A stretch of 64,000 bases of DNA, from the NCBI RefSeq assembly GCF_044704955.1, contig NC_091984.1, positions 144,708,001-144,772,000 of the forward strand. The letters run 5' to 3'. Both the position numbers and the translations under genes were made by a program. Of this stretch, positions 11,132 to 62,467 are shown piece by piece (position 1 is the first letter of the stretch; each line of letters starts with the position of its first letter). The DNA comes from Pristiophorus japonicus. Its lineage: Eukaryota. Below the pieces are notes generated by a model, which did not search any database, had not been told where the DNA came from, and worked only from the letters and a program-made list of their open reading frames with translations.

Positions 11132-11840
11132 ATCCCCCTGATGATATTTTGTCACCAAAACCAGAAATATCTCGAATTGCGTCGTCTTCTGCTGCGGGAG
11201 GTGCATTGTGGGTCCATAACTGATCAATTACACCCGGGCTCCCGTTTCTTCTGATTTCCTGATTAAGACAAACAGATACAGCACCACCGTTCTCTGAGCG
11301 CTTTTTCCCTCCACAGGTCGGGCTTTCGTTATTTACATATATATACAGTTCGTTCTGCATTATCGAGTGCCCCCAGTTAAAATCTCTCCTGTTGGGGCCT
11401 CTTGCGGCTCGCGGCCGGTGAGTCAGGAGGCATCCACGGTGCCCTAGGCCGTGGTATCCGACTGTTTCTCCTTACTACCCCGCCATCTGGGTCATCATCA
11501 TCGTCCTACACCATGGGAGGAAGACCCGCGTCCACCAGGCTCATTATCGTGCCCTGGTTTCTCTTTGCCTTTATCTTCCCCCCCTCGGGGTTAAACAACT
11601 TGCACTGGTTGATATGGCAGCATTTTGTATGTTTCGGGAGTCTGACTGCATATACCATGGGGCTGGCCTTATCTACGATGTTATAAGGCCCCATGTACAG
11701 TGGCTCGAATGCCCCCACTCGGGCACAGTTCCTGAACATTACCTGGTCTCCCACCTTCCACTCGTGGCTTCTCCGGGGCTCAAGTAGCAACCGATGTTTC
11801 CCGGTGCTGGTTCCCCAGGTTACTGGCTGCCTGCCAGTGA
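11132..11840 (-). mobile_element. Internal remnant of element A: integrase C-terminus and 3' untranslated region
   Basis: ORF 11506-11790 WKVGDQVMFRN..FEPLYMGPYNIVDK (GPY/F motif), clearly homologous to 14271-14564. Confidence 0.85.
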
Positions 11841-11913
11841 ATCTGTTTTAAAACATCAAACAGATTCTGGACCAACCTGTCCCGGTTTACCTCGCGGTCA
11901 TGAGCTCATGTGC

Positions 11914-12651
11914 TGCAAGGTGTTAAATTTCCACTCTCCTCTGATTCATAGACCTCGGGAATTACAGGAAGGACTCCACGTAATGCAAAGTTTAGGCTGA
12001 AACCCAACTGTTATTTTGTTACACAAAAAACAACGAAACATTACAGAACAAGACTTCTTAGAGATTGACCGAAGACATACAATCGCCCATCCAGCCAGTT
12101 GCTACTGTTGTCCATTGTCGGCTCGTGGAGCGAGGGAAGGTGTTGTGGCCCTGCTCCTGCTTCGTGGCTGTAGTTCATTGACCTGCTGGTCTGAGATGTT
12201 TCTTCGACCTGTTCTTCCTCTCTCTGAACCTTTGTTCTCAGCTCTTACAGATATATCCATTCGATTATACACATCTCCTGCTGGGTTGCCTTTCAGTTAA
12301 TGCAGCTGGATGAGTCTCGATGGCTGTGGTGATGGGTCTGGATCTGTTCGGACGGCCACAATTCACACATGGAATCGACGGGGCAAAAGATAACTCCTTA
12401 TCTTTTGTGCCCCGTTATCCAAGAATGCATGCCTTGTGGGATTCTTTGTTGTCCTGAGTTTTCGCAGACTTGGAGTCTCCAGAGGAAACTGGTTTTCCCC
12501 TCCGGCCAATGAATTCATGGGCTCCTCTGCTTGATTGTATCAAACCCTTTGTCTCGACATTAATCGGGTCTCACTCCTGACCCCAGAAATCACATTAATC
12601 AGTGATCAGTCATCACCTGCCCCAGGCTGGTGCTCTTTCTCCTTCCCTACA
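11914..12651 (-). repeat. 3' LTR of element B
   Basis: Starts TGTAGGG at 12651 after the env region; 11914-12110 aligns by eye with 20533-20740 (CACTCT.CTCTGATTC..GACCT, TTTAGGCT, AGACTTCT.AGAGA, CATACAAT.GCCC). Confidence 0.65.
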
Positions 12652-12849
12652 GTCCCAAAGGTTTTCTTTTAAGCCATTTTAGTCCATGGCCTCTTGCTGT
12701 GCCTCGATCATGAAACATATAACCCTTACACTTCCCCCTTTAATATCTCTTGTTATAAACTCAGAGACATTACTACAGGTGGCTTCTTCTTCTTTCCATT
12801 GAGCTCTTTTGGGTGTATTGCAGTCTTCAGTCAAATCTCCATTTACATA

Positions 12850-14081
12850 CTTTTTACAACAAAACAATGTTTGGCCTTAATCCATCTGACTTCAGTTTAT
12901 ACTTTTACAAACACTTTCGCCTTGGTTGATTTTAGTAACCCTTCAAGATTCCCTTCCCTCATCTTTTGCTTTAATTAACAGGACAAGACGAATAGATACA
13001 ACACTATTATCAACTGTACAATTACTAACAAGTGTGATACGATTCGAACCCAGGAGGGGATCTCAATATTGAGTCCCACATCCCACTGTGGAGGGGCAAT
13101 CATTTCCTCAATTTCCTCCCTTACTTTTTCGTTCTTTTGGTGTGACATGTAATAATGTTTGTGGGACAACTCGATGTTCTTTAACAGTTCAGTCAAATGT
13201 TCGAGGAACAGTGGGATATAGTATCCAACACGCGATATGTATCCCTGGAGGTTCGTAACGTATCATTGACTGTAATATGGATATGTTTGTGGTCTGAGAT
13301 AGGAATTATCCTTTCTTGTGCTAACTGTGCCTCTACCTGGGGTTTGAAACAAAAGGAAGAATCTGTCAGCATTTTAGGGAGAGGTTTTAATCTGCTTGCG
13401 ATCAGTTCGGTCACATTTACTGCCTTTGGTCAAGGTCAAACAGGAATCAAAACCCTGCGTCCAATTCATTCCTGACCGAAATCCTGCCATTGTCATTTAA
13501 AAACAATCCCCACACCTCCCCTGCACTTGTGGCTAGATCCAACCACACAGACATAAATCCCTTGTTCCTCCTTCCACCACTTTTCCCAACATAATTTCAC
13601 CCCTTCTCTTGTTCCTGTGCTCCGCCTGTTTGAGTTTTTACCCAGTTTCTCCCATTCTGTGGATGCATTAACTTTTCCCCTGCCTGTTTTCTATAACCAC
13701 CACCACCCTCCCATGGGGGCAATCCCTTTACATTCCAGACAAACTCGTCTCCCCTCTCTCACCCGTACATTCCTGGCCGTGATGTTTACCCTGGGGCAGG
13801 ACACTGACACCTCCCCAAGTTTACCCTCGGTTTGTCTGGAGTACTTGGTCAAATTTGACCCTAACCACCCTGGCCAGCTCTCAGTGTGAGCATAGGTGTT
13901 TGTGCCCTTGTTGCTCCGTATGGCTCCCCCTTGAGTTACAGTGGGGCCGGTTCCTCCCATACACCCGTGTGTAAGGAATGTCTCGGTGTCTCCCCGATCT
14001 CCCAATCCTTTAATAATAATGGCCATCCACAGGCCTATCCACAACGTCCACCTCCTCTCGTACCCTTGGCTCGATTCGCTC
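12850..14081 (-). pseudogene. env: env-like membrane glycoprotein with signal peptide, Ig-like domain and C-terminal TM; disrupted and probably internally deleted
   Basis: Candidate splice acceptor TTTCTTTCATTTTTGTCTTTATAG ending at 14082; hydrophobic WTLWIGLWMAIIIKGLG; one frame 14044-13193 with internal stops; after a frameshift a heptad-like stretch and TM IVSHLLVIVQLIIVLYLFVLSC; N-glycosylation sequons NLT, NIT, NAS, NVT, NDT. Confidence 0.7.
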
Positions 14082-14270
14082 CTATAAAGACAAAAATGAA
14101 AGAAATACCTTTGCTCTGTGGGGCCTCCCCCTCACAGGTCCTCCTTCAGTTATTCACAAATGTACATAACTTCTTTTTACAATCACTGCTTCCCTCTCCT
14201 TTTATCCCGATGCTTGGGCTTACAGAGGCTCGGGGGTGGAGATGGGATGAGGTGTCCAGGGCACCCTAGG

Positions 14271-17200
14271 TCACAGTACCTGACCACTCCACCTTACTGC
14301 TCCGTCCCTTACTTCTCCATCCTCATCATCCCACAGTATTGGTGGGAGGCTTACACTGATCAAACTCATTATTATTACTGGGGCCTTGGCCCGCTTTTTA
14401 CTTTTCTCTCCGGGGTTGTACAGCTTACACTGGTTTATATGGAACCATTTTATATGTTTTGGCAGCTGGATCACGTACACCATAGGGCTTGCCTTGTCTA
14501 CAATGCTATATGGTCCTTTGTACAATGGTTCAAATGCCGCTATTCTGGCATAATTCCTGACCATTACCTGATCCCCTGCCCTCCATTCCTGTGTAACCCA
14601 GAGTTCCAGCAGCAGTTTATTTCTGCTGGTGCTGCCTGCCCATATTGTTAGCTGCTTCCCAATGCAGCCCCTTCAGAGTACCATACAGATCTGTGACAAA
14701 CCTGTCCCGTGTGATCTCTTTAACCTGCGTTTCAGTCAGGACTGGTGCTAGGATATAGGTCGGGGTCATCATTAGTCTCCCTGTCATCATCGCATGTGGG
14801 GAGTGTCCCATACTCTTAGAGAGACTGGCTCAGTGGCTCATCAGTATTCGGGGTAGGGTCTCACCCCATTTCTTCGGGGTATCTCCTATTTCCTTCCTAA
14901 GCCTCTCTTTTAAGGTTCGGTTTGTCCTCTACTGGACCTGACGATTGGGGGTTATACGCCACATGAAATTTCCCCTGTATCCCTAACAGCTTTAGGGTGG
15001 CCTGCATTACTGCTCCAGTGAAATGACTCCCTTGATCTGATTCCACTATCAGGGGCAGTCCCCATTGAGAAAATACTTCTCGCACCAGAATCTTTGCTGT
15101 GACTATCACGGTGGCCGCCCAACATGGAAAAGCTTCAACCCATTTTGTAAAGAGATGTATTAACACCAAGCAATATTTATTGCCTCTGCCTGAGGTGGGC
15201 AGTGGCCCAATGGAATCTATCTGTATAGACTGCCATGGCCCCTCTACCCTCCTCGTGTATCCCAACAGAGCCTTCCTCGGTGGGGGTGTGGATTGTTTGT
15301 GGCACATACCAGACAATTCTGGCAATAATCCCTGACATCACTTCTAAGCCCGGGCCACCATCCCACGGCTTCTACTTTATTCCACATTGTTTCTGGCCCT
15401 GGATGTCCAGCTCCTGGACCCACATGCACCAGCTGCAAGAATTCTTCCTTGCACTGCCCTGGCACGATCCAACTATCTCCCTTGAACAACATTCCTTGCT
15501 TTACTGCTATGTCTGCAGCTCCCAAAGGTCCCACTGCAGACTTCCCGTCTATTTTGTCCCTAATCGCTGCTCTAAGGTCAGCATCCCGTAGCTGAGCCTG
15601 TTTTAAATCAGGCGGCAATGGGACTTCTTTGGGCCTCTCTCTGCCTGTTACAGCCGTGATCTGTCCACAGTGACATGGGTCCCAAGGTGTCCCTTCTCCT
15701 GCCCCTGTTTTAGCCAGTGTGTCTGCTTTCTCATTCCCTTCCCACTTGGGCTCTGTCTTAGAGTGTGCTTTGACCTTTTGGATGTAGTCACCCTTCTGGT
15801 CCGTACCCTTGACGTGCAAAATTACTTTTAACAATGGAACCATCACCAACCATTTTCCATCTGAGGACTTAAACCCTCGCCTCGCCAATATGGCTAAATA
15901 CTCTGTACAGGAATTAGAAATGAACATGGAGTCTGAACATATCGTGTAGGGAGTTGGGAATTCGTTCGGGTGTGTGACTACATACGCTACTGCTGCTAGC
16001 TCGGTCTGCTGCGTACTTAAAGTGTTGGGGATTTTATGGCTTTCTCCATCACTGCCTCTGGATCGTAAATCCCACAGCCTGTCTTTCTCTCTCTGTTTAT
16101 TACTGAACTGGACCCATCTACATAGACGTCCCTGCCTGTCAGGTGTTCTCCTGCTCAGAATCCCACATCTACATCCCACACTCCTTCCACTGAACACACA
16201 TGAGCTGTCCCCGGATAAACCAGGCTCGGGGCGAGCTTTGGTTCTCCTGACCTCTCGACCTTCAGGTCGAACTGAGTAAGTAACAATGTCCAGCGGGCAA
16301 TCCTGTTACTGCTCACTGTCCCATCTTTCATTCTACCATCCAGTAACACTTGTGTCGTGGTGTGACAGGTACTGTAGCTAACCCTGTGAGCGATCGAAAA
16401 TGCTTCACTGCCCAAAATGTTGCTAACAGATGTCGTTCGCAATTCGAAAAGCTCTTTTCTATTTCGGTGAGAACTCGGGAGGCGTAGGCCACTGGTCTCA
16501 GCTTGCCGTGTCGCTCCTGGAGTAACACTGCACTCAAACTGTCCCCAGTCATTGCTACCTCCAGACTAAAGTCCTGGTCCCCATTGACTGCTCCCGATGC
16601 TGGTGCTGTCTGTAACACCGCTTTTAACCAAATGAAAGTTTCCTGACAAGTCTCACTCCATTCCCACTCTACTCCTTTCCGAAGAAGCCTCAACAAAGGA
16701 GCTGCCACGGTTACATATTCCTCTATGAATTCCCTGCAGTAACCCGTTATTCCCAGGAAAGACCTTACTCCAGACACGTCCTTCGGAACAGGTAGTTCCT
16801 GGACTGACTTTCTCTTAGCTCTATCTATGGCCCTTTCTCCTGCCCTAATGGTCAAACCTAGAAACTGCACCTCCTCTTTGCCTATTTGAGCTTTCTTGGG
16901 ACTGACTTAAAAACCTGCTTCTTTCAACAAATGCAGTAACTCACTCAATAATGGCCCGTGGTCCTCCGCACTTTCGGAGAATAACAACAGGTCGTCCACA
17001 TATTGGACCAACCGATCTGGCTGACTAAAACCGTTTAATGCCTCGGCCATACTCTGGTGGAAGATCGAGGGACTGTTGTGAAACCCTTGTGGAAGACATG
17101 TCCACGTATACTGCTGACCTTTAAAGGTAAAGGTAGATTTATACTGGTCCTCCCGTCTCAGGGGAATGGACGAAAACCCGTTTGAAATGTCCAGCACTGT

Positions 17201-18069
17201 GAAAGTTGTTGTGGCCGCAGGGATACTCCCGATCAAATCCGCTACCACTGCTACCGTGGGCGCACAGGCTGGAATATTTTTATTCAGGATTCGGTCATCT
17301 ACCGTGGCCCTCCATGAGTTATCGGGCTTCTTTACTGGTCATAGGGGTGAGTTTACATGTGTGGCTATGGTCCTCAACACACCTTGATCCACCAGGGAAT
17401 TTATAGCAGTTTCCAAATCCCTTTCTGCTTCCCGGGGAAAATTATACTGTTTCTGGGGTCGTGTCATCCAATCCCCATCTATCTTCACCTCTACCCTAGA
17501 TACTATCCCGCAATCGTGCTTGTGCATTGCAAACACATCCATATTCTCCCGTACATACCTTGATACCGGGCCGGAATGTTATCGACTAATCGTTCTAAAT
17601 CATAACTCTCTTTCGGCTTCATCGTGCAGGTGCTGCCTTTGTCTGCACTGTCCCTGGGAATCACTGCGATCTCTCCCATCTTATCTGCATCAACTGCCCC
17701 CCATAGACAATTGTTTTCCATATCCACTATGGTGTGGTGTGCCAACATGTAGTCGGCCCCGAGAACTCCCGAACCGGGCTGTTCCCACTTCATTAAAATG
17801 CCCTCCCATTTCATTATGTTCGGTCCTAACTCTACGGTTCAGGGTTTCCACACTGCCCCAGCCTGCTCATTACCCGTCAAACCCACCAGTGTAAATGGTA
17901 CTCCGCTCAACCACGGGGAAGTGGTCGGATTCGGTGAGTGGACAACCGTGCTAGAGGCTCCTGTATCTACTAGATCCCTTCTCCTAACTGTTTCCACCTT
18001 CACATCCACACATGGGCTGCCCCACCCATCATATATGAGCAGACACAGGTATTCTGGCTGGGCACACCG
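14271..18069 (-). pseudogene. pol: pol: protease, reverse transcriptase, tether RNase H, second RNase H, integrase (frameshifted)
   Basis: LVDTGAS (D at 17967); VLDISNGF..WTCLPQGFHNSP..QYVDDLL (16907-17248); LRPVAYASRVLT..CERHLLA (16328-16870); YVDGSS (~16125), QQTELAA, SDS, KVKAH..GNEKADTLAK (15244-16197); HHCC, QID..ESDQGSHF..SSGPVE, GPY. Confidence 0.93.
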
Positions 18070-19730
18070 TCACAGTGGGGGTGCCGACACATTGGGTCCC
18101 TTTTCTCCCACTGCTGCGTCCAGCTTTCCTCCACCCGTGCCCATAACCTGCTGTAATGCGGCCACTAAAACCTGCACTGGGTCGTCGGCTACCTTCTTCT
18201 GGCCTTTTCCTGCCTCAGCACCTCGTACCCTGGCTTCCCTCCTTTAGAGAGCCTACAATCCTTGCTCCAGTGTCCCAACTTCCCACAGTTAAAACACTCG
18301 CCTTTAGATCGACCCGCATTACCTCCCTCTTGTCTCCATTCTTTCTATGGCCTAACCTCTCCTTTTACTTCGTGTACCTTCCCGTTTAGTTTCTCCTCCT
18401 CCCCTTGCCTGGACTTAAAGCTAGAGTTAATCTTCTCAGCACCCCTGCCTCTGTATTCTGGAGATGGTCTGGGTCAAACCATGCTTCAACCTTTGCTCTG
18501 AGCCGTGGCAAACTGTTACCATTACGGTTCTCAGCCAATGGTCCCTGGGTTCCCCTATTAAATCTGCCCGTACCAGATTTCCTCCAGCAGCCCTTAAATA
18601 AATCACCCACAGTCTGTCTGCAAACGTATCGGGCGATTCGTTTACTTGCTGCCTAGTCTGTTCTACCTGCCAGAACGGACTACCCTGACTGTACCCGAGC
18701 ACTGCCATCATTTGCTCCTTTAAGCCCTGTGGGGTTCCTGCACCTAACTTGGTGGCTGTCGACAAGCTCTGATAAATCTTCCCCTCCAGCGAGAGCAGTG
18801 TTAGCTTCACTTTCTCCTCCTCGCTGCAGTTATTGATACCCCCTATCTGCTCTATATTAGTAAAATGAACAGAGGCATCCCCTCCTTGCTTTAACTGTAC
18901 TACACCCATCAGCATCTGCTGCAGCTGAAGCGGTGTGTATGGGATCACTAGTCGCTCTATAATGGTGCCGGACCACCATTTGGTGGGGGTGGGCCGAATT
19001 TCTGCTGTCTCAAAGGACACATCGGTTTCAGGGGTCCCGGTGCCTCGGGAGCCGGCTGATGCTCGCGATACTCGGGCCCATCATCTGACTCTTTCCCCTC
19101 TGGATCCCAATCTTCCTCACCTGTTCCGGGTGCCCTGAGACAAACCATCCCTTTGGTCCCGTCTAACTCTGCCGTTAATTGGTGGATCTTTTCCTGACAA
19201 GGTCCGTGATCTGCTCTCGCGTAACCCTGTTTCTGGGCTACGTGATAGGCTATCGACTCTCCTGACCTGGTCCTCTGCCTCTTGGCTCTTTCTAAATGCC
19301 TTTCACTTTGTTCAATATGGGTCTGCTGCTGCTTTTTGCACTCGGTCACCTGGCATTGTAAATACTCAAGGTGATTCCGTGCCGTTTCTTCCTTCCGACC
19401 CTGGTCCTGCCTTTCCTTCTCCAAACTGCCTACCTCGCCCTTTAACCCTTTATTCTCCTTCTCCAGCTTTCCGACCCTTTCTCTTAACAGTTGTGTCTGC
19501 TTCTGCAGGTATATGAGCCAAACCTCCTTCTTTTTTGACCCTTTGTGGTTACTACTGACTGTCCACTCTGCTGTTTGTTCCTGCGGATCCCCAGAGTGCA
19601 GCATTTCCCGTGCCCATAGCCCTGAAATGTTCAATTTGTTGCCTATATATCCAGCTACCTTAGCCTCCATGGACTTCCTACGATGGCTGTTAGCTGCGGG
19701 CTCTACCACGTTTTGCTGCGGTGAGCCCAT
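18070..19730 (-). pseudogene. gag: gag (coiled-coil N-terminus, capsid-like region, CCHC zinc knuckle), frameshifted
   Basis: ORFs 18957-19730 and 18436-19020; CFNCGKLGHWSKDC at ~18296-18255. Confidence 0.85.
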
Positions 19731-20509
19731 TTCCAGTGCCTCTGGCTGAGAAATTCTCTCTGACTACCTTGGTGTCCCCTGAGACCACCTCGCAGTGATC
19801 TGCGGTTCCTGTTACTCTGGCTTCTCTCTGTGGCTACCCTAGTCGACCCGAGACTACTCCGGCCTGTCAGAGACTTTCTCTCCTGGTCCCCTAGTCACCC
19901 TTGAGATCACCTTTGGCCTCCCTGAGACGACCCCGTGACAATATTGGCTTTTCTCTGTGACTACCCCAGTCAACCGAGATTACTCCAGACTATCCGAGAC
20001 TGTTTCTCCCTCAGGCTGCCCTGGCCGCCCGTGAGATTATCCCTGGCCTCCCTGACACCCCTGCGCAGACTATCTGCGATTACTTCTCCCGGTTGCTGCC
20101 CTAGTCAGCCGGAGCTCTTCGGCTACTCCTGGTCCCCCTTGAGATTACCTTGGTCTCCCTGAGACCCCTTCGCAGACTACCTGCGGCTTTCTCGGTGGCT
20201 ACACTCGTCAACCCAGGATTACTCCAGCCTACCCAAGACTGTTCCTTCCTCTGCTGGCTGCCCTAGCTGCCCTTGAGAGTACAATGGTCTCCCTCAGACC
20301 ACTGAGCAACTACCTGAGACTTCTTTTCTCAGTGGCTACCCTAATCGACGGAGAAGACTCAAGCCTATCAGACCCTGTTACTCTCCTGGTCGCCCTAGCC
20401 GCCCTGGAGAAGATCCTTTTCGACCACCTTAGCTGACCTTAGACATAACCAAGCCTCCCTCGGGGTTTTTGCTCTGGTATGTGTCCCTGATACTATTCCC
20501 AAAGCCGAG

Positions 20510-20527
20510 GTCCTGCCGCGGTCACCA
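20510..20527 (-). other. Primer-binding site complementary to the tRNA-Arg(TCG) 3' end
   Basis: Plus strand GTCCTGCCGCGGTCACCA versus recalled vertebrate tRNA-Arg(TCG) end GTCCTGCCGCGGTCG-CCA (1 mismatch); 5 nt from the LTR end. Confidence 0.8.
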
Positions 20528-21196
20528 ATTTCTGTAGGTAGTTTGTTTTTCACTCTACTCTGATTCTTCGACCTGGGAACTTGTAGTGGGAAAGGACAAC
20601 ATGTGACACAATATTTAGGCTTCACCCAGTGTCAGTTTTATTATGCACAAAAACCGTCGAAAACTACAGGACTAGACTTCTGAGAGAAATCGACTGAAAT
20701 CATACAATTGCCCTTCCTGGCTGTAGCTATTGTAGGTCCGTGGTCATTGGTTCTGTGACCGGTTGGTACTTCTTCTGGCCGTTCTCTGCAGTGCTGTTAC
20801 TTCTGTGTACGTTCCGTACAACATGTTCCTCCGTCCATTCGTCTGTTCGTGCTTTCGACCTGTGTCCATCTGTACATGTGTCCTTCTACTTCTCCTGTGT
20901 GCTTCTTCTTCCGTCTGTTCCTGTCCTTCTTCCATCTCCTGCTGAGCTGCTTCTAGCTCACATATTTATATCCAGGTTATGACTGATCTCCCGCCACTGC
21001 GGTTTCTGATAAAGTGTTTGCATCAATACATTGTTTTGTGGTCCCCTTGGTTGATTGATTACAATAATGAACTCGTCTGTTTCCCATTTGCACACTGAGT
21101 CTGCAAGGCTCAAGTTGATTTCTCATCTTAACACCTCATCCTAAAAAATGTGCAACTGTTGTGGTTCCTTTGTTGTCAGGTCCTTTTACAGACCTG

Positions 21197-24068
21197 GGGC
21201 TAGAACCTCCTCTTTTATTGCCTGTTTAATGCCCACTTAACACCCATTTTACCACTGAAATGACATATAACGCCCAGATATCACCCATTTTGGCACAAAA
21301 TGGAAACTGACGGGCTTTTTTAGGAGACTTGTCGCCGAGCATTACTTTCCCAATGGGCTTAACGCAGAGAATAAATATTATCGCCCACCTACTTTTTTGG
21401 GGCGGAATCAGCAGAATGGGCAAATTCAACGCCCATATTATCACCCAGCGTTACTTTCCTCATGGAATTAATGCCGAGATTCAAAACCGCCGACTATTTT
21501 TTGTCATGAACAGCATATTTACCCAAAGTAACGGCCATGGAGATCACCCACCGTCAATTTCACCACCTCGTACACATATCGCCCACAATATCGCTCGCTC
21601 AAAAAACCACCCACAAAAAGTGGAACTAACCAGAACGAATCACAGCGTTATGGATGGCATGATGTAGATCACATGTCACGTCCTTTCACCTCGGCGGAGT
21701 TCGGATGTACTCTGCAGGTCGTTGGAGTTGATGTGAACATCTCTGAAAACATCTTGACCACACTGTGACCAATTGGAATTGAAGAGGTGTGCTCGTCGGG
21801 ACATTCTTTGCTTGTGTGCAATCGGTGACAGACACAGAGCTACTGCAATGGGGCCTGTCCTTTCTCACCCTCTCTTGGTGACCAAATATATGCAGCAGAC
21901 TCAACATCGCTGAAGGAACGCGACATTGCATTATGTGCCCAATGTACAAAATAACAGTCAGATGAGGAGGACCAGTCATTACACCCTCTGCAAGTACAAG
22001 GAGAAGCATTCTTACCTCGACTTGCCCGACACCACCTGCCTTCGGAGACTGCGCTTCCACAAAGAGGTTATCACTGAGGTATGCCAGCTGATAAGGGCAG
22101 ACCTACAGCCTGGCAGCACCATCAGAACTGCACTGTCCGTTGAGGTCGAAGTCACCACGCCACTATCGTTCTATGCCTCGGTTTCTTTTCAGGCCACAGC
22201 TGGTGACATTTGCAGACTTTCTCAGCATGCCACACATTGCTGCATTAGACAGGTCACTGAAGCCCTGTACGCACGCAGGAGGGACTTGATCAGCTTCCCT
22301 ATGACCAGGGAGGCACAGAGTGAGAGGGTTCGAGGTTTCTCCAGAATTGCAAACTTCCCCAAGATGCAGGGAGCAATAGACTGTACGCACATCGCGATGT
22401 GGGCACCTTTTCAGGATGCCGCAAGGGATTCCACTCCCTGAATGTCCAGCTGGTTGTCGACCACCAGCAAATTATACTGGCAGTGAATGCTCAATTTCCG
22501 GGCAGCATCCATGCTGCACACATCCTGCGTGAGAGCATTGTATCTGACTTGTTTAACATTGAGCCACAAGGTCAATGCTGGAAACTTGGGGCCAAAGGAT
22601 ATGGCCTTGCCACCTGGCTGATGACCTCCTGCGTGACACCCACACTGAGGCCGAGAGGTGATACAACGAGAGCCACAGAGCAACTCGCAATATTGTGGAG
22701 AAAACCATTGGAGTGCTGAAGCAGCGCTTTCGATGCCTGGACCACTCAGGTGGTGAGCTCCAATACTACCCTGAGCAGGTAGCTCAATTCGTGGTGATGT
22801 GCTCCATGCTACACAACTTGGCTATCAGGAGGGGACAAGAATTGCCTGATGAGCCTGACAGTCCATCTCACCAGAGAGAGGAAGAGGAGGATGAGGAGGC
22901 GGACGCCGACATCGGATCAGACAATCAGGCTGACGCTGAAGCCATGCCCCCGCCCTTCTGTAGATCGCATGAAAGGTCCCATGGTGGCATGATAGCTGCA
23001 AGCGCCTTACGCCAGGAGCTCATCAATGATCGCTTTGCCTAAAAGAACGTTGGTGTTATTTCCACAGCTGACACACTGCTGGGTGTGCAGGTCATAAATT
23101 AATCGTGGGCATTACCTTGGTGACCGTTAAAGTTTACTTTGATTATATCCTTTGATGTTAACAAATCACCAGCGTGTTACGGTACAGCTATCTGAGCCAA
23201 TGTGCTGCAAGGTTTTGTTCAATAAAAAACATTTAAACCAAACATTAGTCTGAAATCATCAGTATTTCTGTACAAACCAACCCTTCCCCCCACCCACCCC
23301 GCTTCTCCTCCCCAACTCTACCCCTTCCCCTTCCCCTTCTGACTCCAAGCCGCCTGACCGCGGAGGTTCTCAGGCGATGCTTCATTGGGAGGTGGGTGGT
23401 GATGGACAAAGCACTGCTTGGACGGATATGGGAGAAGATGGTCCCAAGGTGGGAACGTGCTTCGAGCCAGAAGCGAGATGTTGCTCCTGGCTCTCATGTG
23501 TGGTTGGCAATGGGGTTGCGTCACCTTGGGGTGTAGTGCGGCGCTCCGGGATCACTGGGAGCCCTCTGCCACCAGTGTTCCTGGCTACCAGCTCCAGGGC
23601 CTCCTCCATCCCTTACATTTTATATGTTATTTGTGGGACAAAAACTCGATGCCAACTATGTTCTTGGTGCTTAGTGCGCTTTTTGCTGCTGGTGAATCTC
23701 CCTCGTGACTCCCACAACAGCCAAACAAACGCAAACCACAGACACACACGCTTTCAGTGCGTCTGAGCTCCCTCTCTCTCTGTCTCCTCTTCTGCGTATG
23801 TCATGGTTACCCTTGACCTCCAGAATCGAGGGAATGGACCATTGCCATGCTGTTGCTAAGGACGACCGCACTTTACAACAGAAGGTCAGAAAAATTTAAC
23901 GCTGCCGCCCATTTGAACTCGTTCGCGATAACGGCCATTTTCAAAGATGTAAACTAAGTGTTTTGAGAATGGGCGAGAAGCCGGCGATCTGAAAATCCTT
24001 TTTTACCACCCACGCCGGAAATCACGCCCATTTTTGGGCGCTAAGCTCAAAAGTGGAGGTTCTAGCCC
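21197..24068 (+). mobile_element. PIF/Harbinger DNA transposon
   Basis: 20-bp TIRs GGGCTAGAACCTCCTCTTTT / AAAAGTGGAGGTTCTAGCCC (1 mismatch); 3-bp flanks CTG / TTG. Confidence 0.9.
21926..23042 (+). pseudogene. Harbinger (HARBI1-like) DDE transposase, frameshifted
   Basis: GAIDCTHIA, RKGFHSLNVQLVVD, FPGSIH, EKTIGVLKQRFRCLD, CSMLHNLA across three overlapping frames. Confidence 0.92.
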
Positions 24069-27546: not shown

Positions 27547-28581
27547 TGTAGCTCCAGCTTTCTGGCCATTTCTATCAACAATATTTTAAATCCTTAAATC
27601 CAAATCCCCAAGAAAGAACTGTACTGTTTGGCGAGCTTGTGGGGGTGGCATTGAAGTGCATTCATTTACAACCGGACATTTCACACTGACAGGCTGGGTG
27701 GCAGGGAACCCAGGCCCATTGATGTCATCACCATCTAAAGTGATTCCTGGGAACAATATCCCGAGAGGTAACTCAGAGACACTGTGCCTTCGCATTATTA
27801 AAGCACAGTCACCACTCAGTCCCAACCCAAACTGGTGCCGGACAGGAAATGGCCAGCCCATTGTCTTCCAGAAGATAAGCCGGTTAAGCAAGATCGGTTT
27901 GTGATCGAAACCCATTACCTGCTAATGGGGGCCATCAACTCAGGAAACGACAGACATCCAGTAATCAGTACCCATTGTCTCTCCAGACGCAAGGCCTGGG
28001 AGCGGGAAAACACAACACAATTTTTCACAAAGATTTCAAAGGCTATGAGCCGCTCCAGGACACGGGGAGGTGGGGGGTCCAAACAGATCACCGGAGTCAA
28101 TCCATCGGTCAGTATTGGCGGGAGGAAAGGTGATGGGTTTTGGGGATATAAGGAGCTGCTTTCCAAAAAGCTCCAGCTCAGGAGGAAGAATGCTACGGAA
28201 AAAGCTCAGGAAAAAGCCCAGGAAAAAGCTCAGAAAAAACCCAGGAGTGAGACGTTCAGGAAGAAACTGCAAGCAAGACAACGGGCAATCAGGGTGAGCA
28301 TATTAGCTGTGTGAGGGGGTGATTGTAAGTCCCAACCAAACCCAAGGGGTTTAGTGCTGGGGGGGTCCTGTGTTAGTTTATATCACGGGAGGGTTCTTTT
28401 ATTAAGCCGTGGTAACTTTTATGTTTTGCACTGTTTATGAGTGGTGTTGTTAATCTTATTGAACATAATACAGTTGAGCCTGAAAAAAATGTGTCCGAGT
28501 CTGATCTATCCATATAATCCCTATCGTCCAGAACTTGTAGTAGGAGGTGCATTTACGTTACGCCGGAAAAAAACACCTACA
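27547..28581 (+). repeat. Solo-like copy of the element A LTR
   Basis: TGTAG...CTACA; inverted paralog of 9999-11131; TATA-like GGATATAAGG at ~28145; 12-bp GAAAAAGCYCAG repeats. Confidence 0.88.
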
Positions 28582-28587
28582 GGCACC

Positions 28588-28935
28588 CCCTCAGTACTGC
28601 CTCTTCGATAGTGCGGCACTCCCTCAGTACTGCCAATCTGACAGTGCGGCACTCCCTCAGTACTGTCACTCTGACAGTGTGGCACTCCCTCAGTACTGCC
28701 CCACCAACATTGCGGCACTCCCTCAGTACTGACGCTCCGACAGTGCGGCACTCCCTCAGTACTGCCCCACCAACATTGCGGCACTCCCTCAGTACTGACG
28801 TTCCAACAGTGCGGCACTCCCTCAGTACTGCCTTTCTGACAGTGCGGCACTCCCTCAGTACTGCCCCCCTGACAGTGCAGCACTCCCTCAGTACTGCCCC
28901 TCTGACAGTGCAGCAATCCCTCAGGACTGCACAGC
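28588..28935 (-). repeat. SINE-derived 33-bp tandem repeat (~10 copies)
   Basis: TCAGTACTG recurs at 28591, 28624, 28657 ... 28921 (period 33). Confidence 0.93.
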
Positions 28936-30351
28936 AGTGTATGTCTTTATTTTACACTCAGGTCCCTGGAGTGGGGCTTGAACCCACGATACAACATTGC
29001 ATCACTGGATGCTGCACAGTCCGGGCTGTGAGTCATATCCCGACCTCAGTTGAAACAGCTAACTCAGAACAAACAACAACAGCCACTTTTATACAGCACC
29101 TTTAACACAGTAAAACTCACCAAGTGCTTCACAGGAGCGTTATAGAATAAAGATTGACAGCGAGCCACGTAAGGAGACATTGAAAATTGCAGCTCAGTCA
29201 AATTGTGAGGGAAATTGTCAGTGCTGTCTTCATACCAAAAGGGGACGATGTTGCTTCTGAAAAGACCAGATTTTTTGACAATTTCTGTGAAACTCAATTG
29301 ATTGGTTTGTAAAACCCGTTTGTACCAAACCTCCAGTCAGGTTTGCAGAATCATTTCCAGTTCCCCACGTGTCATTTGATGGTGGATCTCAGCATGTATC
29401 TCCTCGTCCGCTCGTGAGGCGGTGTCTCAGACCGATTGGTGGGTCAGCAGCCACTCCGCACTGCATCGAGCATCGGCAGGCCATTCCACTGTGGAAGACC
29501 TCACCGCGGAGCTCTGTACACAGGGTATAACCACACAGAGACGCTCTGCCGCCAGGTACAGCAGCAACAACCTGCATTGCTATAGCAACTGGAACATTAG
29601 AACAACATCCCAAGGCAGCTGACAGAGGCGTAATCTGGTCAAAGTGGTGCTGAGCCAAAGGGGGAGGGGCTGGGAGGGTGATCAAAACGCTCAGTCGCAG
29701 ATTGGGTTTGAAGGGAGGTCTTAAAAGAGGAGAGAGGTGGAGTGGCAGAGTGGTTTAGGGAGCAGAGAGTTAGGGCCCAGGCAGCTGAAGGCACGGCCCC
29801 CAATGGAGGGGGAAGGGAAGGGGGGGATGGATAAGAAGCCTGAGCCAGATACAGCGGCCCCTGAATACAACAACAACTTGTATTTATATAGCGCATGTTG
29901 TGACAATGACAGACAGCGAGAATATAACCCTGATAATGTAACACAGTATTTGCAGCACTTGACACTGTGGGGAAAGCTTGTAATTTTAAATCCATGAGCT
30001 GTACATAAGCGAGAGCAGGACCTGTTTGTGACTGGTGCGGAGATCACCACTTACAGAAGGTAGTTACTGCAGGGAATTCAGGGCCACAGTGACCTCCTGG
30101 ACTAGTTTCCATCGCCTGGGGAGCGGGGGATGGTCGGAGAGGAGTTTCCCAGATTTATTTCCCCCAATGGGTTTTTTCCCTGGTTTTTTGCCTCTCCCAG
30201 GAGATCAGGTAGTTTTGGGTGGGGTGGAGAGTCTATACTGTGATACACAAGGTATCACAATTGTGTGGGACGGGCTGGATTGACCACAGGGTCTTTACCT
30301 GTCCGTCACTGTCCGCGGGTTTGGGTTTCAAAGACGTAGAGCTGAATTGGA

Positions 30352-59349: not shown

Positions 59350-60756
59350 CGGCACCCTTCAGTGAGAAAACCAAGGCCTGTCTGAGGGCAGGTATTGTGA
59401 CGGTCAGAGGTCCATTTTGTGGAAGGAGGAAAGGTCAGAGAGACCACAGACATTGTGCTCACCATGGACTCCGCCGCTGAGTGGGGTCAGCGGCCGGAAG
59501 GAGGCCCAAGCGTCGCCGGGGGCGAGGGAGGCACGAGTGTCACCCGGGGGGGGGGGCGGGGGGAGGGATGGAGGCCCGAGCATCGCCGGGAGGTGAGGGA
59601 GGGAGGGAGGGAGGGAGGCCCGTACTTTAGGATGAGGAGTGAAGGTTGGGCCCAAACCTGTGGATGGGGCGGGTCGGAGGCTCACAGTCGTTGAGTTCGC
59701 CGGGATAGGTTGGAGCAGCTGAGTCGGCCAATGGGGAGTGAGCAGCGAGGGTCCAGCTGGAGGGACATGGCAGCAGGCAGGTCGACCTGGAAGGTAGGCC
59801 GAGGATGGGCGATGGGTAGTGGGACCTTGCGTACGGGATTTTAGGGATTTAGGGGTAGGTAAAATACTTACACCGCAGTCAATCCACCTACGGCCCAAGC
59901 ACCCAAGGCCCCACCCCACTGCTGGCCAAGAACGAGGAGACACCCATCAAGGACACTGAGGCAGTCAGAACCTGCTGGAAGGAACACTTTGAAGATCTCC
60001 TTAATCGAGAATCTGCCTTAGATCTGAGTTTCCTCGACTCCATCCCGCAGCATGCTACCCATCACCTTCTCAGTAAAACCCCAGCCCTGCACGAGGTTGA
60101 AAAGGCCATCCATCGGCTGAAGAACAACAAGGCATCGGGGACGGATGGAATCCCCGATGAGGCATTAATGTATGGCAGAGCATCACTATTGACATGAATG
60201 CATGACCTCATCTCTCTCATCTGGAGGGAGGAGAGCATGCCGGGAGATCGCAGAGATGCAGTAATCGTGATCCATCTTTAAAAAAGGGGACAAGTTCGAC
60301 TGCGGCAACAGTAGAGGAATCTCCCTGTTATCAGCCACTGGGAAAGTCATCGCTAGAATCCTCCTCAACAGTCTTCTCCCTGTGGCTGAGGAGCTCCTGC
60401 CGGAGTCACAATGCGGATTCCGTCCACTACGGGGTACAACGGACATGATATTTACGGCGCGACAACTGCAAGAGAAAAGCAGCGAACAGCACCAACCCTT
60501 GTCCATGGCCGCCTTTGACCTTACAATGGCCTTTGACACTGTTAACCGCGAGGGTCTGTGGACCGTCCTCCTCCATTTCGGCTGCCCCCAAAAGTTTGTC
60601 CCCATTCTCAGCCTGCACCACGACGACATGCAAGCCATGGTCCTAACCAATGGATCCATCATAGACGCAATCCACATTCGGACCGGAGTCAAGCAGGGCT
60701 GCATCAACGCACAAACCCTATTCTCGATCTTCCTGACGACAATGCTCCACCTCACA
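59350..60756 (+). mobile_element. RTE-clade LINE fragment
   Basis: LLPESQCGFRP.RGTTDMIF..QLQEK..FDTVNREGLW..GVKQGC (60382-60774); the 5' part of the span is less certain. Confidence 0.8.
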
Positions 60757-61139
60757 CTATTGGAGAACCAATAGGAAGGAGCCATGTTTCCTGGTCCCTA
60801 TTGGAGGACCAATAGGAAAGAGCCTTGTTTCTTGGTCCCTATTTGGGGATCAACAGGAAGGAGCCATGTTTCCTGGTTCCTATTGGGGGACCAATAGGAA
60901 GGTATCATGTTTCACGCGACCTATTCGAGGACCAATAGGAAGGAGCCATGTTTCCTGGGCCCTATTCGAGGACCAATAGGAAGGAACCATGGTTCCTGGT
61001 CCCTATTGGGGGACCAATAGGAACGATCGATGTTTCCTGGTCCCTATTGGGGGATCAAAAGGAAGGAGCCATGTTTCCTGGCCCCGATTGGAGGACCTAT
61101 AGGAAGGGGCTATGTTTTGTGTGCCCTATTGGAGAACCA
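60757..61139 (+). repeat. 41-bp tandem repeat, ~9.4 copies (one more unit at ~59299-59348)
   Basis: CTATTGGAGGACCAATAGGAAGGAGCCATGTTTCCTGGTCC at 60757, 60798, 60839 ... 61126. Confidence 0.93.
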
Positions 61140-61745
61140 GTGGGATGTGGAGTGTGCATCCTTCCTGTTGTAAATGTTGGATCGTTGGCACCTGATCCCA
61201 GCAAAAACCCCTGACCTGGAGCGGGGCCATGGAAGGGGAAAGGATTCGTAGGTGTTCTGAGCGGACAGGATGGGGCAGTGGGTCAGACCCTGTCCTGTCG
61301 CTCCAGCTCACACTGATGGGGTGAGGATCTCCTCCGTCTGATGGGCCTTCATGAAATCAGCTTTCTGTCCAAACTGGTCCCCACTGAGAAAAGGCCCTTA
61401 ATTGGGCAATAAACAGCTAGTGTACTGAGAGAGGCCAAGGGATGGCCACTGTGGGGAATGGGGCCTTACTCCAGGAGAATGCATGTTCCGGGGTCAAGTG
61501 TCAGCATCCATTGGTGGGGCAGGGCACAGGGAGGTTTACTCTGCATTTCAGTGTGCTGCACCGGGGAGTCTGTGGGGAAGGGAGAGTGACACAGAGAGTG
61601 AAACGGGGAGAGAGAGGCTATGAATCAGAGACAGAGAGGTGTCGAGGAAAGCTGTGAGACATAGGGCAATGAAGGCTGAAACAGAGAGAGAGAGAGAGGG
61701 TGGGAGAGGGAGTGGAACTGGGAAGGAGATGGAGGGAGAGAAGAA

Positions 61746-62137: not shown

Positions 62138-62439
62138 GTATCAGTGGGGACATCATCATGACCCAGTCACCCCCGGTGCTGTCAGTGAGTGAGGGACAGA
62201 CTGCAACCATCACCTGTACCGCCAGTGCATCCGTTAGCAGCAATTATGTTGCTTGGTACCAGCAGAAAGCCGGGCAGAAACCCACTCTGCTGATCTATGC
62301 AGCAACAACTCGTTTCACTGGAACCTCCGATCGCTTCACCGGCAGTTACCAGTCCAACACGTACACCCTGAGCATCAGCAAAGTGCAGAGCGAGGATGTC
62401 GCAGACTATTACTGTCAGCAACATAGCAGCTCCCCTCTA
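62138..62439 (+). CDS. IGKV: Immunoglobulin light-chain V exon, kappa type, germline configuration
   Basis: Acceptor CCCCTCAG; (G)[51 protein letters not shown] with no stops. Confidence 0.97.
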
Positions 62440-62467
62440 CACTGTGATACACAGCCGTACAAAAACC
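62440..62467 (+). other. 12-bp-spacer recombination signal sequence of V
   Basis: CACTGTG + ATACACAGCCGT (12) + ACAAAAACC. Confidence 0.95.

Follow-up and report, generated by a model that had tools for sequence, protein, structure and literature searches.

Within the immunoglobulin light-chain (IgL) region of Pristiophorus japonicus, an earlier note read a cryptic V/I-set immunoglobulin (Ig) domain from the minus strand of a retrovirus-like element, at the position of env. This raises three questions: whether the segment is an Ig fold at all, whether it belongs to the envelope protein (Env) of a retrovirus family or to the neighbouring light-chain genes, and what such a domain might do on a virus. 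The window is the whole 64,000-nucleotide stretch that was analysed (contig NC_091984.1, positions 144,708,001 to 144,772,000), and all coordinates without a contig or locus name refer to it.

The provirus and its place among retroviruses

Read along the minus strand, the element has the order LTR-PBS-gag-pro-pol-env-PPT-LTR together with a tether and a second RNase H, which is the layout of Retroviridae. The 3' part of the 5' LTR (20547..20733) is followed by a primer-binding site (20510..20527) in which 17 of 18 bases are complementary to the 3' end of host tRNA-Arg(TCG). The leader between primer-binding site and gag (19818-20410) contains degenerate tandem repeats of ~60-130 bases. A broken gag (17900..19763), recognised from its frames and Pfam, comprises an N-terminal coiled coil (18957-19763) and a capsid-position frame (18436-19080), with a CCHC knuckle near 18290 and then a protease (DTG) near 17970. 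The pol gene (14274..17338, by Pfam), interrupted by stops and frameshifts, contains reverse transcriptase (RT, with YVDD), the tether (RT_RNaseH_2), the second RNase H, and an integrase with H2C2, core and SH3-type C-terminus. Downstream of env, the sequence shows a polypurine tract (12741-12731) and a 3' LTR (11928..12730) that begins with TG at 12730. The window copy is dead: every gene is broken, by stops among other lesions, and env has a 1.15-kb deletion.

The two LTRs are alike over only 190 bases, at 72%, and dating the element by the LTR pair gave no date. Since they (11928-12730 and 20547-21500) also resemble different sets of dispersed copies, the provirus is either a recombinant or exchanged one LTR once it had inserted. 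Just past the 3' LTR, a further integrase C-terminal fragment (11586-11884), which matches 14411-14709 at 71%, belongs to a related adjacent element.

The closest named RTs are frog and coelacanth 'NYNRIN-like' proteins (47-50%). In a tree of 39 RTs that included natural snakehead retrovirus (SnRV; L133), three lokiretrovirus (Loki) loci located through the published RT motif (L150-L152), foamy and gamma/epsilon sequences, and that left aside ERV-L/S and fish foamy-like ERVs, the element falls inside Retroviridae (100/99) and outside Loki, foamy and gamma/epsilon, at an open basal fork with SnRV. An AU test rejected forcing the element together with Loki (p 0.031) and did not reject forcing it together with SnRV (p 0.21, which does not establish a clade), both groups having been named after the tree was seen. 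We therefore use 'basal, SnRV-like' retrovirus as a working label. A lokiretrovirus identity, suggested by the dual RNase H, the coiled coil and an F-like Env, was rejected because the RT motifs are SnRV-type and both the tree and the AU test argue against it. A gamma-type Env, which would be marked by CXXC in SU and by an immunosuppressive domain and CX6CC in TM, is likewise not indicated, with no TLV_coat-type Pfam match and an RT outside the gamma/epsilon clade.

The envelope gene and its N-terminal domain

The env exon likely starts at 14081, behind a pyrimidine tract plus AG (14082..14108) that resembles a splice acceptor in both sequence and conservation: 20 of 25 positions are pyrimidines, against 40% on the minus strand, and the AG is kept in 30 of the 33 dispersed copies with a locatable site (60 examined). 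A hydrophobic, signal-peptide-like stretch follows (14012..14050; Kyte-Doolittle 1.96 over 13 residues), and because the frame holds no Met upstream of it, translation likely starts from a spliced leader exon.

The Ig-type domain (13541..13795) lies behind this stretch, at the N-terminus of Env. Its minus-strand frame, as the earlier note had read it, was reproduced in each particular, namely a B-strand Cys at codon 13732, a C-strand Trp cluster (WWW) 9-11 residues after it, an F-strand E-x-G-x-Y-x-C with its Cys at codon 13549, a Cys-Cys spacing of 61 residues, and an in-frame TAG (13693-13691) that interrupts the domain in the window copy. The domain thus has all that our V/I-set motif test looked for (55-75 residues between the Cys, a C-strand Trp and D/E-x-G-x-Y-x-C). 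Four more Cys lie near the motif and are conserved in the family too, and three N-glycosylation sequons fall inside the domain or just before it.

Evidence for the fold itself comes from several methods, among them the stop-masked Pfam, AlphaFold and Foldseek checks that the earlier note had named in advance. With X at the stop, the sole Pfam family at E<=1 was Ig_3 (E 0.0022, 18.9 bits), and the version of the domain in a sister family scored better (Ig_3, E 3.6e-5, 24.6 bits); both scores lie below the gathering threshold of 30 bits, which no Ig score reached. In the ESM Atlas, the domain matched V/I-set clusters (0.92-0.94), and all ten of the best family-bearing matches belonged to one Ig clan. 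An AlphaFold model built from a 17-row alignment (11 natural copies and 6 homologues) was nearly all-beta (pLDDT 55, pTM 0.51). When this model was scanned with VIA against 48,161 chains, the best match was embigin (rmsd 2.5 A over 91 residues) at Z 8.2, a value that adjoins the 7-8 typical of unrelated models, and, judged by their titles, most of the 50 rows listed were proteins with Ig domains (titin, NCAM2, antibody and TCR V domains). Foldseek matches to the model were predominantly antibody-type chains (best E 3e-3). A PDB sequence search gave weak matches, mainly to TCR V-alpha (best E 0.08), and a PDB profile search from Env alignments gave a weak Ig match to CRTAM (E 0.17) with a profile that zinc fingers from a chimeric gene model had disturbed. 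Each of these lines is modest alone; taken together, they make it very probable that the predicted domain has a V/I-type Ig fold.

The remainder of env in the window copy is short. The earlier note had placed the domain between a signal-peptide-like segment and a nearby heptad/TM region. The signal-peptide-like segment was confirmed, but the heptad/TM region is close to the domain only because ~1.15 kb of env is missing at a junction (13359..13368) where dispersed copies have an extra stretch. The deletion takes out an F2-like segment, the furin site, the fusion peptide and the larger part of the F1-like core. Beyond the junction, the reading frame continues as a C-terminal remnant (12978..13262) with a membrane-proximal heptad and a TM helix (13043-12987; Kyte-Doolittle 2.74 over 19 residues), which by eye resembles the C-termini of the homologues P0002 and P0015.

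What the deletion removed can be read in a dispersed copy, where a single 476-codon frame runs from before the Ig domain through the domain, a linker, the F2-like segment, RWKR and a fusion-peptide-like segment into the heptads. The Ig domain is therefore in frame with a furin site and a fusion core, which places it in the envelope protein of a retrovirus family, as the earlier note had proposed, and rules out the accessory glycoprotein that it had offered as an alternative. Folded as a single sequence, the 476-residue frame gave pLDDT 34.

The fusion core is homologous to that of Loki and SnRV Env. In HHalign, a profile of 15 natural Env sequences matched a Loki Env at 96.8% (E 2e-10) and SnRV Env at 87% (E 4e-6). 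Loki Env in turn matches Pfam Fusion_gly F0 (E 1.2e-5 and 0.002), a relation noted in the available part of the report by Wang and Han (PMC7947760). The shark Env family has no direct Pfam Fusion_gly match, and the PDB profile search found no F structure, so the link to F runs through Loki Env and the core can be called paramyxovirus-F-type only indirectly. Loki Env opens with its F2-like segment right after the signal peptide, which makes the Ig domain an N-terminal addition.

Copies, selection and the light-chain locus

To follow the domain through the genome, searches returned 1117 (DNA) and 7049 (protein) first-look candidates, from which 40 and 150 were scored. Among 64 dispersed copies, the B-strand Cys is present in 61, the Tyr in 58 and the F-strand Cys in 62, with all three together in 54. 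Pairwise dN/dS, computed without CpG codons, was 0.30 (0.22-0.44) in the Ig frame of these copies, against 0.99 and 1.00 when the remaining frames were read. Most of the copies had been picked because their protein resembled the Ig part (the best 150 among 7049 candidates), a choice that pulls dN downward. Eight copies ranked by DNA similarity gave 0.36 (0.21-0.60). The Ig domain was thus under purifying selection while the virus family spread, and the earlier expectation that it would be fixed in the family with dN/dS below 1 is borne out. The remainder of Env, which played no part in picking the copies, gave 0.27-0.42. Since the value for the Ig domain is not below that of the rest of Env, selection here speaks for a folded and needed domain and does not speak for receptor contact.

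Relatives extend beyond this family. A search of 1.84 billion representatives gave 27 matches, 6 of which span the Ig region; a skate protein is 43% identical over 346 residues with the Ig motif intact, and relatives of the Ig region were also found in sawshark and whale-shark proteins. One of the 27, a 2228-residue repeat protein (P0025), appeared spurious and was left out. A profile search for further Env relatives added two proteins. Two sawshark gene models (P0004, P0007) join env pieces to Niban-like and zinc-finger genes, and are either prediction artefacts or exonised env pieces. The same genome as the window contains the sister family mentioned above, 48-49% identical, in which all three copies examined have the Ig motif and env frames open over 735-806 codons. 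With many long open env frames on different contigs (L168, L169 and L170), this younger family shows more recent activity of the lineage than the window's own family does.

The copies closest to the window's own behave differently. The 29 closest (95-100% to the query) lie mostly at C8:143.4-148.8 Mb, on the window's contig, with others on three further contigs. In four of five IgL-locus copies tested, the host DNA that flanks the element is shared on either side (~96%), and the end of the env deletion is at the identical position in 22 of the 29. Shared flanks and a shared deletion end indicate one insertion that was duplicated along with the light-chain clusters, in agreement with the earlier suggestion that the position of the domain in an IgL locus is coincidental. 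Across the leader-to-linker region, dN/dS among the 29 copies was 0.94 (0.47-2.42), consistent with neutral evolution of the IgL-locus copies. The TAG of the window copy is not common to the family; in the 30 closest copies, a stop between the two Cys is absent from 18, and 8, the window copy included, have a stop inside the domain.

Many of the IgL-locus copies have a 212-codon open frame that encodes the leader and the Ig domain and ends shortly after. Such a frame could yield a short, secreted, Ig-only protein that the host keeps as a receptor-blocking restriction factor or immune protein. The near-neutral dN/dS of these copies and the stops within the domain count against such host use, and we regard it as very unlikely.

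The location raises another possibility, that nearby light-chain genes were the source of the domain or that its motif arose by chance in decaying DNA; the site within the light-chain cluster region and the sub-threshold Pfam score could be cited for this. Against the local light-chain V gene, the domain has 23% identity (E 0.02) and no DNA similarity, as the earlier note had anticipated. Purifying selection is specific to its frame, and the domain is present in dispersed copies on many contigs as well as in other sharks and a skate. These data refute the reading, and we give it almost no weight. Separately, the local V segment (62190-62440, plus strand) carries its RSS at 62440, with a J-like F-G-x-G-T motif further downstream (~63923), and the window contains two minisatellites (28516-28977 and 60716-61186) with units of 33 and 41 bases.

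The earlier note had also called for the nearest host Ig-superfamily (IgSF) gene. Relatives of the domain were found, but no close host one: among the 27 matches, ten of them looked up by name, there was no IgSF host protein; the PDB sequence matches and the local V gene are as distant as given above.

The N-terminal slot and its possible role

Several relatives share the Env core and differ in what precedes it. The Env proteins of Chiloscyllium (P0015), Scyliorhinus (P0163) and two frogs have fronts with B- and F-strand-like Cys motifs, for which Pfam Ig support is faint in the Chiloscyllium and frog heads (E 0.1-0.2) and none for Mantella. P0015 already bears the automatic UniRef name 'Ig-like domain-containing', and in the ESM Atlas the full-length Chiloscyllium Env matches only an unnamed chordate cluster (0.82). 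In relatives from Mustelus and Pristiophorus, the front is an unrelated Cys-rich domain. SnRV Env starts with a segment (L133:6131-6460) of weak Ig character, which matches V-set at E 0.064 and the Ig domains of contactin-3 and perlecan at E 0.03-0.04, and a basic cleavage-type site, RQKR, comes after it. In the literature searched, we found no description of this segment or of the receptor-binding part of SnRV. The heads of different lineages align at HHalign 0.2-11%, and the Env core tree has no resolved base; the Ig-like heads may represent one old capture or several.

The full-length env frames of P0015 and P0163 are 86% identical although their host sharks belong to different orders. In the window's genome there are decayed copies with 67-79% identity to P0163 and an unbroken 786-codon relative at 44% (L165:1459-3819). 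From these sequences, env frames of the P0015/P0163 type are candidates for host-kept (domesticated) F-type env genes.

The role that we consider somewhat probable for the modelled Ig domain is that of an attachment head on the paramyxovirus-F-type Env of a basal, SnRV-like endogenous retrovirus (ERV). The reading draws on analogy of position, since gamma/alpha-type Env proteins have N-terminal receptor-binding domains (RBDs) of IgV fold. We hypothesize that a spliced env mRNA would give a precursor bearing a signal peptide, that furin would cut this precursor, and that the Ig domain would stay part of the surface subunit, facing outward from the trimer. There it could bind a host surface protein, probably another IgSF member, after which the F-type core would refold and the membranes fuse. 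The N-terminal slot itself may be a swappable module, because it is empty in Loki, occupied by a different, Cys-rich domain in some shark relatives and by a divergent Ig-like one in others.

An Ig domain on virions and infected cells might instead serve as an immune decoy or modulator, with attachment performed by another part of the protein. Large DNA viruses carry CD200 or Ig-type proteins, and the domain has weak fold matches to Ig-type membrane proteins of herpesviruses, poxviruses and adenoviruses (best E 0.012), although these are no better than generic Ig matches. The Env of Loki, which does without an N-terminal domain, suggests that the core may attach alone, and the Ig-like segment of SnRV could be shed at its basic RQKR site. 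Since no close host immune receptor was found among PDB sequences (best E 0.08, TCR V-alpha) and known receptor-binding domains sit at the front of Env, we consider a decoy unlikely.

A structural part without a ligand, acting as a folding aid, a glycan shield or a clamp on the pre-fusion trimer, would fit the three sequons, the extra conserved Cys and a dN/dS equal to that of the rest of Env. That relatives lack the domain or carry an unrelated one in its place is better explained by a swappable recognition module, and a purely structural role therefore seems improbable, to about the same degree as the decoy.

If the attachment-head reading holds, a broader history can be tentatively proposed. 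It is possible, though we hold it with less than even confidence, that a basal branch of retroviruses represented in sharks, skates, frogs and SnRV fused host-derived Ig domains in front of an F-type fusogen, making it an entry machine in a single piece, and swapped these heads repeatedly. In paramyxoviruses and pneumoviruses, F works alongside a second protein that handles attachment. A retrovirus that has only an F-type Env must accommodate attachment within this one protein, and an Ig head would be one such solution. Its absence from Loki and its replacement in some relatives would represent a modular route for changing attachment, and would carry the concept of captured and transferred RBDs over from gamma-type to F-type Env. 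The arrangement would then be a third retroviral attachment design, next to the RBDs of the gamma type and that of foamy viruses, and would name the receptor-binding part of SnRV Env. With ~100 residues, the Ig domain could be expressed alone, which makes its fold and its partner directly testable, as also for the Ig-like segment of SnRV.

Ig-type heads as such have precedents, contrary to the earlier statement that canonical retroviral Env proteins carry no IgSF domains. In its available part, one preprint describes gamma-type RBDs (MLV, FeLV, Env-Pb1) as modified IgV folds, RBDs that move between Env lineages, and a SIRP-derived IgV head on the Env-Dbi of a mammalian ERV (Hotzel, bioRxiv 10.1101/2024.03.17.585361). 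On F-type, Loki or SnRV Env, we found no report of an Ig head in a search of mostly open literature, taken without Repbase or bioRxiv supplements, nor in word searches of PMC7947760, PMC13709493, PMC10072453 and bioRxiv 10.1101/2023.10.26.564294. Ig heads are thus known on gamma/alpha-type Env and, as far as these searches go, apparently undescribed on F-type Env. The accessible portion of a 2026 preprint on shark Env deals with the gamma type only (10.64898/2026.05.06.723177). SnRV-like ERVs are reported from elephant shark (a chimaera) and coelacanth in the part available of PMC4977317, and the accessible text of PMC7947760 lists six cartilaginous-fish genomes without a Loki mark.

Compared with these known systems, the element combines familiar parts in a different way. 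Like the gamma-type RBD-C and the SIRP-like RBD of Env-Dbi, as described in the available part of the Hotzel preprint, it has an N-terminal IgV-fold domain on a retroviral Env; the carrier there is a gamma/alpha-type Env, whereas here it is an F-type core, and the domain has no recognisable host parent. Foamy Env, in the portion of PMC11468914 available, is similar in joining an F-like core to an additional RBD on a retroviral envelope protein. This foamy RBD folds in a way of its own and lies within the surface subunit, however, and the domain II of foamy Env that does have an Ig fold belongs to the F core and is not an N-terminal head; the RT of the element also lies outside the foamy clade. 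With Loki, the element shares an F-like Env core with an R-x-K-R site, a dual RNase H and a coiled coil before the capsid region. It differs from Loki in its RT signature and its separate place in the RT tree (100/99; AU p 0.031), and Loki Env lacks an N-terminal domain. SnRV differs in the length of its Env (1134 codons), in ~400 additional residues that separate its Ig-like segment from the core, in a long tail, and in an Ig-like segment that is weakly alignable with the shark domain (HHalign 11%). It is alike in RT motif type and in RT identity (40%, where Loki reaches 33-35% and foamy 32-35%, with some gamma/epsilon-side RTs likewise 38-40% identical to the element), in a Gag that has a coiled coil at its N-terminus and a single CCHC knuckle, in its dual RNase H, and in a homologous Env core.
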